From the NCBI RefSeq assembly GCF_003334405.1, contig NZ_QOWM01000066.1: DNA of 418 nucleotides; one strand, 5' to 3'. The notes under the pieces were generated by a model. It was given only the letters and a program-made list of their open reading frames with translations, did no database searches and was not told the origin of the DNA. The position numbers and the translations under genes were made by a program. The stretch is from Escherichia coli (GTDB lineage: Bacteria > Pseudomonadota > Gammaproteobacteria > Enterobacterales > Enterobacteriaceae). Of this stretch, positions 1 to 418 are shown piece after piece (the first letter of the stretch is position 1; every line of letters begins with the position of its first letter).

Positions 1-30
1 ATACATGATCAAATACTCCTTACATAAATA

Positions 31-36
31 AGGTGA
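31..36 (+). promoter_or_regulatory. Shine-Dalgarno ribosome-binding site (AGGTGA) for the transposase start codon
   Basis: AGGTGA at 31-36 is followed by a 4-nt spacer (ACAA) and the ATG at 41-43, which is the start of the conserved MELKKL... N-terminus. Confidence 0.55.
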
Positions 37-40
37 ACAA

Positions 41-418
41 ATGGAACTTAAAAAATTGATGGAACATATTTCTATTATTCCCGATTACAGATAAGCCTGG
101 AAAGTAGAGCATAAATTGTCAGGCATCCTACTATTGACTATTTTTGCCGTTATTTCTGGTGCAGAAAGTTGGGAAGATATAGAGGATTTCGGGGAAACAC
201 ATCTCGATTTCTTGAAGCAATATGGTGATTTTGAAAATGGTATTCCTGTTCACGATACTATTGCCAGAGTTGTATCCTGTATCAGTCCTGCAAAATTTCA
301 CGAGTGCTTTATTAACTGGATGCGTGATTGCCATTCATCAAATGATAAAGACGTCATTGCAATTGATGGAAAAACGCTCCGGCACTCTTATGACAAGAGT
401 CGCCGCAGGGGAGCGATT
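41..418 (+). pseudogene. ISAs1-family transposase (H repeat-associated protein), N-terminal 125 codons, interrupted by an in-frame TAA at 92-94; 3' end lies beyond the window
   Basis: ATG at 41 with upstream SD. Frame 2 translates to MELKKLMEHISIIPDYR then TAA (92-94), then continues with no further stop through 418: [108 protein letters not shown]. Similarity to the family continues on both sides of the stop in the same frame, so this is a nonsense interruption and not a frameshift. After the stop the first in-frame ATG is at 320, which probably explains why the ORF track did not report this frame. If the TAA is a sequencing error this would be an intact CDS. Confidence 0.7.

Follow-up and report, generated by a model that had tools for sequence, protein, structure and literature searches.

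A group of amino acid replacements lies close to a nonsense codon at the beginning of the Escherichia coli transposase pseudogene ybfL, and this raises the question whether the replacements reflect the decay of an inactivated gene or belong to the allele in which the stop codon occurs. The DNA analyzed here, a stretch of 418 nt that we call the window, comprises the 5' end of ybfL (b0705), an ISEc1/H-repeat transposase pseudogene linked to RhsC in E. coli K-12. It is 100% identical over all 418 nt to positions 736,785-737,202 of K-12 MG1655 (NC_000913.3), and many other E. coli chromosomes contain it at 100% identity too. In K-12, ybfL is the central one of three tandem ISAs1-family (ISEc1, "H-repeat") copies, ybfQ-ybfL-ybfD, that are located downstream of RhsC, between the RhsC element (rhsC-ybfB-ybfO-ybfC) and ybgA-phr. 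RefSeq labels the gene of K-12 as a pseudogene, and PGAP gives it the annotation "ISAs1 family transposase, internal stop". The two annotations place the start of the feature differently: RefSeq K-12 at 736,900 (window position 116, TTG Leu26, past the stop) and PGAP at the ATG in position 41 of the window. Gene callers elsewhere choose the TTG of Leu32, which leads to proteins beginning with MTIFAVISG (P0002, P0005). The window therewith represents already known and annotated biology, and the finding of such a pseudogene is ordinary. H-repeats have been described as Rhs-associated IS-like sequences for which no transposition has been observed (PMC3032704), and a search of the literature on ybfL, H-rpt and ISEc1 revealed nothing specific beyond this general statement. 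The coordinates of all features are summarized in Table 1.

Table 1. Features of the ybfL window, differences from the other K-12 copies, and loci at which the diverged block was found together with the stop codon. Positions refer to the window unless a locus is named.
Feature	Position	Strand	Basis or remark
Leader, untranslated, in the left part of the IS	1-40	+	Upstream sequences of copies compared
Codons 1-17, ISEc1 (ISAs1-family) transposase frame of ybfL	41-91	+	Translation; PGAP CDS start at the ATG
TAA nonsense, codon 18	92-94	+	Other copies and three outgroups have CAA (Gln)
Codons 19-126, open, in frame	95-418	+	Translation; the K-12 frame runs on to codon 378
DDE_Tnp_1_assoc (PF13808), residues 8-94, N-terminal	62-322	+	Profile match, repaired YbfL
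First part of the catalytic domain DDE_Tnp_1 (PF01609; residues 102-343 in the full-length protein)	344-418	+	Extends beyond the window end
Diverged "ybfL-type" 5' block	79-259	+	Variable-site and haplotype tables
Q18*	92-94	+	CAA>TAA versus YhhI, YdcC, YbfD, YbfQ
D28G	122-124	+	GAT>GGC versus YhhI, YdcC, YbfD, YbfQ
C35F	143-145	+	TGT>TTT versus YhhI, YdcC, YbfD, YbfQ
G43S	167-169	+	GGT/GGC>AGT versus YhhI, YdcC, YbfD, YbfQ
D101N	341-343	+	GAT>AAT; fourth replacement in the window, absent from the earlier note
Block with stop, locus 1	RhsC/ybgA		ybfL position
Block with stop, locus 2	Rhs element adjoining yafV-ivy-fadE; L006, L007, L010, 4041-5177		Locus reading
Block with stop, locus 3	ydcC/pptA; L091, 3042-4178		Locus reading
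Block with stop, locus 4	adjoins nrfB; L092, 3042-4178		Locus reading

The limits of the element were determined by aligning four copies from separate loci, which places the left inverted repeat ~105 nt upstream of the window start; homology of the four copies begins with CAGGGAAAGATCA, ~146 nt upstream of the ATG, and this is the left end of the IS. The right end, TAATCTTGCCCTG, is the reverse complement of CAGGGCAAGATTA and is located directly past the stop codon of the transposase frame. The terminal inverted repeats bound an element of ~1.29 kb, and both ends lie beyond the window. The leader of ybfL and ybfQ is of a particular type, with AAGGTG at 30-35 versus the AAGGAG Shine-Dalgarno sequence of canonical copies, A at position 28 versus T, and a distance to the ATG that is reduced by 1 nt. 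This variant leader (window 28-40; 6028-6040 in locus L001) is common to the ybfL, ybfQ and yafV-locus copies.

In full-length ybfL of K-12, the TAA at codon 18 is the sole lesion disrupting the ORF; the frame is not intact, and the copy is a defective member of the family. After repair of the stop, YbfL exhibits the domain architecture of ISAs1-family transposases, PF13808 followed by PF01609, of which the window holds residues 1-126 only. The stop, G28, F35 and S43 are all situated inside the PF13808 region. Repaired YbfL scored 414.6 bits against the curated NCBIfam family model NF033564 (cut-off 70) versus 412.4 bits for the intact YhhI, 108.0 versus 103.5 bits against PF01609, and 109.3 versus 114.9 bits against PF13808, the last value being 5.6 bits lower. 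As judged by these profile scores, repaired YbfL matches intact YhhI, and there is no general degeneration of the protein.

An Rfam search of the window gave no match, a PDB sequence search found no solved structure of any relative, and the count of promoter-like sites in the window was at the level of the shuffled background. A terminator-like hairpin is present within the coding frame at 189-207 on the plus strand (TCGGGGAAACACATCTCGA followed by a T-rich tail; shuffled sequences average 0.1 such structures); its stem is weak, and it is probably a chance occurrence. Opposite the transposase frame, an antisense ORF of 67 codons spans 131-334 on the minus strand, for which we found no supporting evidence of a gene.

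The earlier note, which had been made from the window sequence, compared a stretch of 26 residues of ybfL (window 113-190) with a canonical H-repeat N-terminus. This canonical sequence is identical to that of K-12 YhhI, YdcC, YbfD and YbfQ. The three substitutions within about 20 residues and the additional nonsense codon that it had reported (D28G, C35F, G43S and Q18*) were confirmed by translation and by comparison with the K-12 paralogues. Of the four replacements found in ybfL alone, three are contained in a stretch of 16 codons, and the silent differences cluster there too. In the block 79-259, 16 positions differ from the canonical K-12 copies (11 silent, 4 in replacement codons and 1 nonsense), and divergence reaches ~8% versus ~2% elsewhere. 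Since the silent changes are also clustered in this block, the cluster of replacements represents a diverged block of sequence rather than a locally accelerated change of the protein.

The residues of ybfL were also surveyed in an alignment of 125 diverse family representatives with 37-54% identity. At position 28, where ybfL has glycine, 70 members contain D, 29 contain E and a single one G. At position 35 the phenylalanine of ybfL was found in none of the 125 members, versus cysteine in 74. Serine, the residue of ybfL at position 43, is the commonest one in the family (36 members, followed by G in 33), and position 101, where ybfL has N, is highly variable. Moreover, S43 is present in full-length stop-free E. 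coli copies together with D28 and C35, for example in the upstream copy of L091 (WP_104457411.1). By this alignment, the residues G28 and F35 are exceptional at two conserved sites, and G43S and D101N would be ordinary polymorphisms of the family.

The intact paralogues yhhI (RhsB-linked) and ydcC (RhsE-linked) have, like ybfL, 378 codons in the same frame without indels, and they share with it the architecture of PF13808 and PF01609 at ~97-98% amino acid identity. In contrast to ybfL, they carry Gln18, Asp28, Cys35, Gly43 and Asp101 as well as the canonical AAGGAG leader. The ~40-47 nucleotide differences between ybfL and these copies, which PGAP assigns to the ISEc1 family, are mostly silent, and identity amounts to ~94-95% at the nucleotide level in the window and to 97-98% at the amino acid level. 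The tandem paralogues ybfQ and ybfD, which lie in the same region downstream of RhsC, are both truncated (84 and 253 codons, respectively), unlike ybfL, and keep Gln18, Asp28, Cys35 and Gly43. However, ybfQ resembles ybfL in its leader and in the silent markers at window positions 109, 118, 121 and 190.

The earlier note had proposed a comparison of dN/dS with the closest intact copies as a check of its claim of decay. Using the method of Nei-Gojobori for ybfL versus intact K-12 yhhI and ydcC, we obtained values of 0.060 and 0.077 for the whole gene and of 0.088 and 0.093 in the window, which, like the polarization described below, are approximate due to recombination among the copies. This outcome speaks against the claim, as the values are lower than the dN/dS of 0.19 between the intact yhhI and ydcC. 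Synonymous divergence (dS) of ybfL from the intact K-12 copies was 0.15-0.17 for the gene, 0.19-0.27 in the window and 0.30-0.39 in codons 1-75; since it is highest in codons 1-75, the segment 79-259 represents a more deeply diverged block. Over 1,137 nt, ~28 changes are private to ybfL among the K-12 copies, namely 4 replacements, 1 nonsense and ~23 silent changes.

The 18 fixed differences in the window were polarized with homologous DNA of E. albertii, Entomohabitans and Salmonella. The branch leading to ybfL received 4 replacements and 1 nonsense versus 7 silent changes, 4 silent changes were assigned to the canonical branch, and 2 of the 18 differences were ambiguous. With 5 of 12 changes being replacement or nonsense, versus a neutral expectation of 80%, the ybfL branch departs from neutrality (p=0.004, approximate for the reason given above). 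Four of the silent changes on this branch are common to ybfQ, and past the ybfQ-type split the terminal branch contains 4 replacement or nonsense versus 3-4 silent changes (p=0.06-0.15). Constraint could thus have been relaxed for a short time on the terminal branch, where D28G and C35F could have arisen by drift after inactivation. No second disabling lesion was seen in K-12 ybfL, in which 360 codons past the stop are open, and these 360 codons are likewise uninterrupted in most of the full-length metagenome copies that carry the stop. Neither several disabling lesions nor a dN/dS near 1, the marks of pseudogene decay, were found in ybfL. Private polymorphisms of the stop-bearing copies (22 replacement, 1 nonsense and 28 silent) were rejected as a selection test, because the intact pool comprised only 8 unique sequences, so that recombination imports such as ybfD markers were counted as private.

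The age and spread of the stop-bearing haplotype were assessed in 5,426 complete genomes. A stop-repaired query of 418 nt could not tell copies differing in the stop only from copies with one other mismatch, so queries of 127 nt and 94 nt were used, the haplotype being defined by the exact 94 nt of window 79-172 that include TAA, G28, F35 and S43. In 2,567 records (~47% of the 5,426 genomes) the TAA haplotype was the top match, with a median of 2 and a maximum of 5 places per genome. The CAA version of the same 94 nt had full-length matches in 3 records, 7 being the upper limit. In metagenome contigs, which were searched with a pattern covering C, G or T as the first base of codon 18 (CAA, GAA and TAA), 66 of 66 matching copies carry TAA and none CAA or GAA.

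The ybfL-type block with the stop occurs at at least four chromosomal loci (Table 1). The copy at the ydcC/pptA locus combines it with a canonical leader and with a 3' part carrying ydcC-specific markers. The haplotype tables of ISEc1 reveal breakpoints throughout the gene and the block joined to variable 3' parts. Haplotype frequencies beyond the exact-match counts are biased, since loci entered the sample through their resemblance to the window. The nonsense-bearing segment seems to have spread among the ISEc1 paralogues by gene conversion. The 3' parts of the stop-bearing copies at the yafV, ydcC/pptA and nrfB loci resemble the respective local copy. A donor species of the block was not found in the species-representative genomes, where the only match was an E. 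coli-like contig, JARKOR010000224.1 (L093; 2,399 bp), of a MAG bin named "Candidatus Nanosynbacter". It contains a ybfL-type block with TAA, followed directly by a 1-nt deletion; this E. coli ISEc1 sequence is almost certainly a contamination of the bin.

Copies with the residues of ybfL and no stop do exist. The exact repaired YbfL (Q18, G28, F35, S43, N101) is found among called proteins as P0121, on 63 contigs, and includes UniProt YBFL_ECOLI; P0123 and P0124 (WP_001573811.1) are stop-free versions of the yafV type, and P0122 is a hybrid of 253 aa. Intact ORFs of 378 codons were read in ten loci at the chromosomal position of ybfL. Those of type 1 (L079-L082) differ from K-12 ybfL by T92C only, with three further silent differences in L082, and keep the flanking markers 79T and 106A; the surrounding 8-9 kb of L079-L081 show 2-9 differences from K-12. 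TAA extends far beyond strains so closely related to K-12, and these alleles therefore look like back-mutations. The type 2 alleles (L083-L088), whose leader is canonical, and the complete genome GF66.2 have the ybfD-type leader and canonical markers through window position 106, and the intact copy of GF66.2 (WP_338389237.1) contains G28 and F35 but G43. By their marker pattern, both type 2 and GF66.2 look like products of conversion repair. In complete genomes, the three stop-free copies with G28, F35 and S43 are ybfL/ybfD hybrids truncated at 253 codons. Stop-free copies with the exact residues are rare and look secondary, and nothing points to an established intact subfamily.

Rearranged relatives were observed as well. 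Many strains have ybfL and ybfD merged into a gene of 253 codons consisting of the 5' part of ybfL and the 3' part of ybfD (L002, 6041-6799; L008, 4042-4800; L011-L013, 3983-4741), which is the outcome expected of a deletion by recombination between tandem copies. The E. coli protein P0023 (346 aa) begins with MELKKLME, after which codons 9-18 including the stop are absent in frame, the frame being reopened in a different way; an internal segment further on is absent too, and the protein may be real or an assembly artefact. The proteins P0001, P0002, P0004 and P0005 (404-511 aa) contain internal duplications of transposase segments, which probably resulted from recombination of tandem copies or from misassembly across copies.

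We consider it probable that K-12 ybfL is an old single-lesion pseudogene of a diverged ISEc1 allele within a mosaic family of recombining paralogues. The replacements D28G, C35F and G43S, together with D101N, belong to a distinct and older ISEc1 allele lineage, most diverged in 79-259, whose divergence is mostly silent and would have taken place mainly while the gene was under constraint at the protein level. A single change of CAA to TAA at codon 18 disables ybfL, with D28G and C35F probably arising shortly before or shortly after it. The block with the stop, a common E. coli haplotype with different 3' parts, would have been transferred to other ISEc1 copies through gene conversion or homologous recombination, which would also make the whole ISEc1 family mosaic. 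Constrained divergence and the transfer of the block by recombination would make ybfL an old single-lesion pseudogene and not a multiply decayed copy. With regard to the old, diverged copy that the earlier note had suggested in place of a recent single lesion, old age agrees with the dS in the window and with the occurrence of TAA in thousands of records and at several loci, but the picture of decay does not agree with one disabling lesion only.

The same note had found the pattern to fit relaxed selection, with D28G, C35F and G43S being drift damage accrued once the copy had been inactivated. We regard this as unlikely, although it accounts for some observations: G28 and F35 are odd at conserved sites (of the 125 members, 99 have D or E at position 28 and 74 have C at position 35) and almost always linked to the stop, the terminal branch is compatible with neutrality, and the PF13808 score is reduced. 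As the main cause, however, relaxed selection is at variance with the overall dN/dS of 0.06-0.09, with the rejection of neutrality on the polarized ybfL branch (p=0.004) and with 360 codons that contain no second disabling lesion, and the NF033564 and PF01609 scores are no lower than those of YhhI. Moreover, S43 is the commonest residue of the family and occurs in intact E. coli copies, and N101 is at a free position, so that drift is needed for at most two of the four changes, D28G and C35F, which could fit it. A different possibility is that the residues define a living, functional sub-variant of ISEc1, the stop having arisen recently and in part of the strains only. The called proteins identical to repaired YbfL (P0121, P0123, P0124), the ten intact ORFs at the same chromosomal site and the G28/F35 copy of GF66.2 would be in line with this; in being intact, those with exactly these residues also correspond formally to the intact, expressed homologue that the earlier note had named as evidence against decay. 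Yet stop-free copies are confined to 3 (at most 7) versus 2,567 records and to 0 of 66 metagenome copies, the three from complete genomes are truncated hybrids, type 1 alleles with their near-K-12 flanks look like back-mutations, type 2 and GF66.2 look like conversion repair, and the stop is common to at least four loci. We therefore hold such a sub-variant to be quite improbable, and the distinct subfamily considered by the earlier note remains in a weak form only, as an allele lineage within ISEc1 at ~94-95% nucleotide identity.

There is a very slight chance that the stop-bearing 5' block, present in ~47% of complete genomes and usually twice in each, is no neutral passenger but is itself favoured and has been spread by gene conversion as a silencer of the ISEc1 transposase, or that re-initiation at TTG (Leu26 or Leu32) might yield a truncated inhibitor of intact copies. 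The analogy for the latter is the Tn5 inhibitor protein, an N-terminally truncated product that inhibits the intact transposase.

The preferred reading, a diverged allele with one old lesion, constitutes mainly a methodological correction. Amino acid differences clustered beside a stop codon had been read as decay. When paralogues, outgroups and thousands of genomes were compared, these differences proved to belong to an old allelic block, mostly silent in its changes, which recombination shuffles among the copies. The ybfL pseudogene belongs to a well-known and apparently immobile IS-like element, and the importance of the finding is therefore small. For the ISEc1 family it means that elements at several loci have apparently received a nonsense-bearing segment and that, in this haplotype, the stop codon is the majority state.
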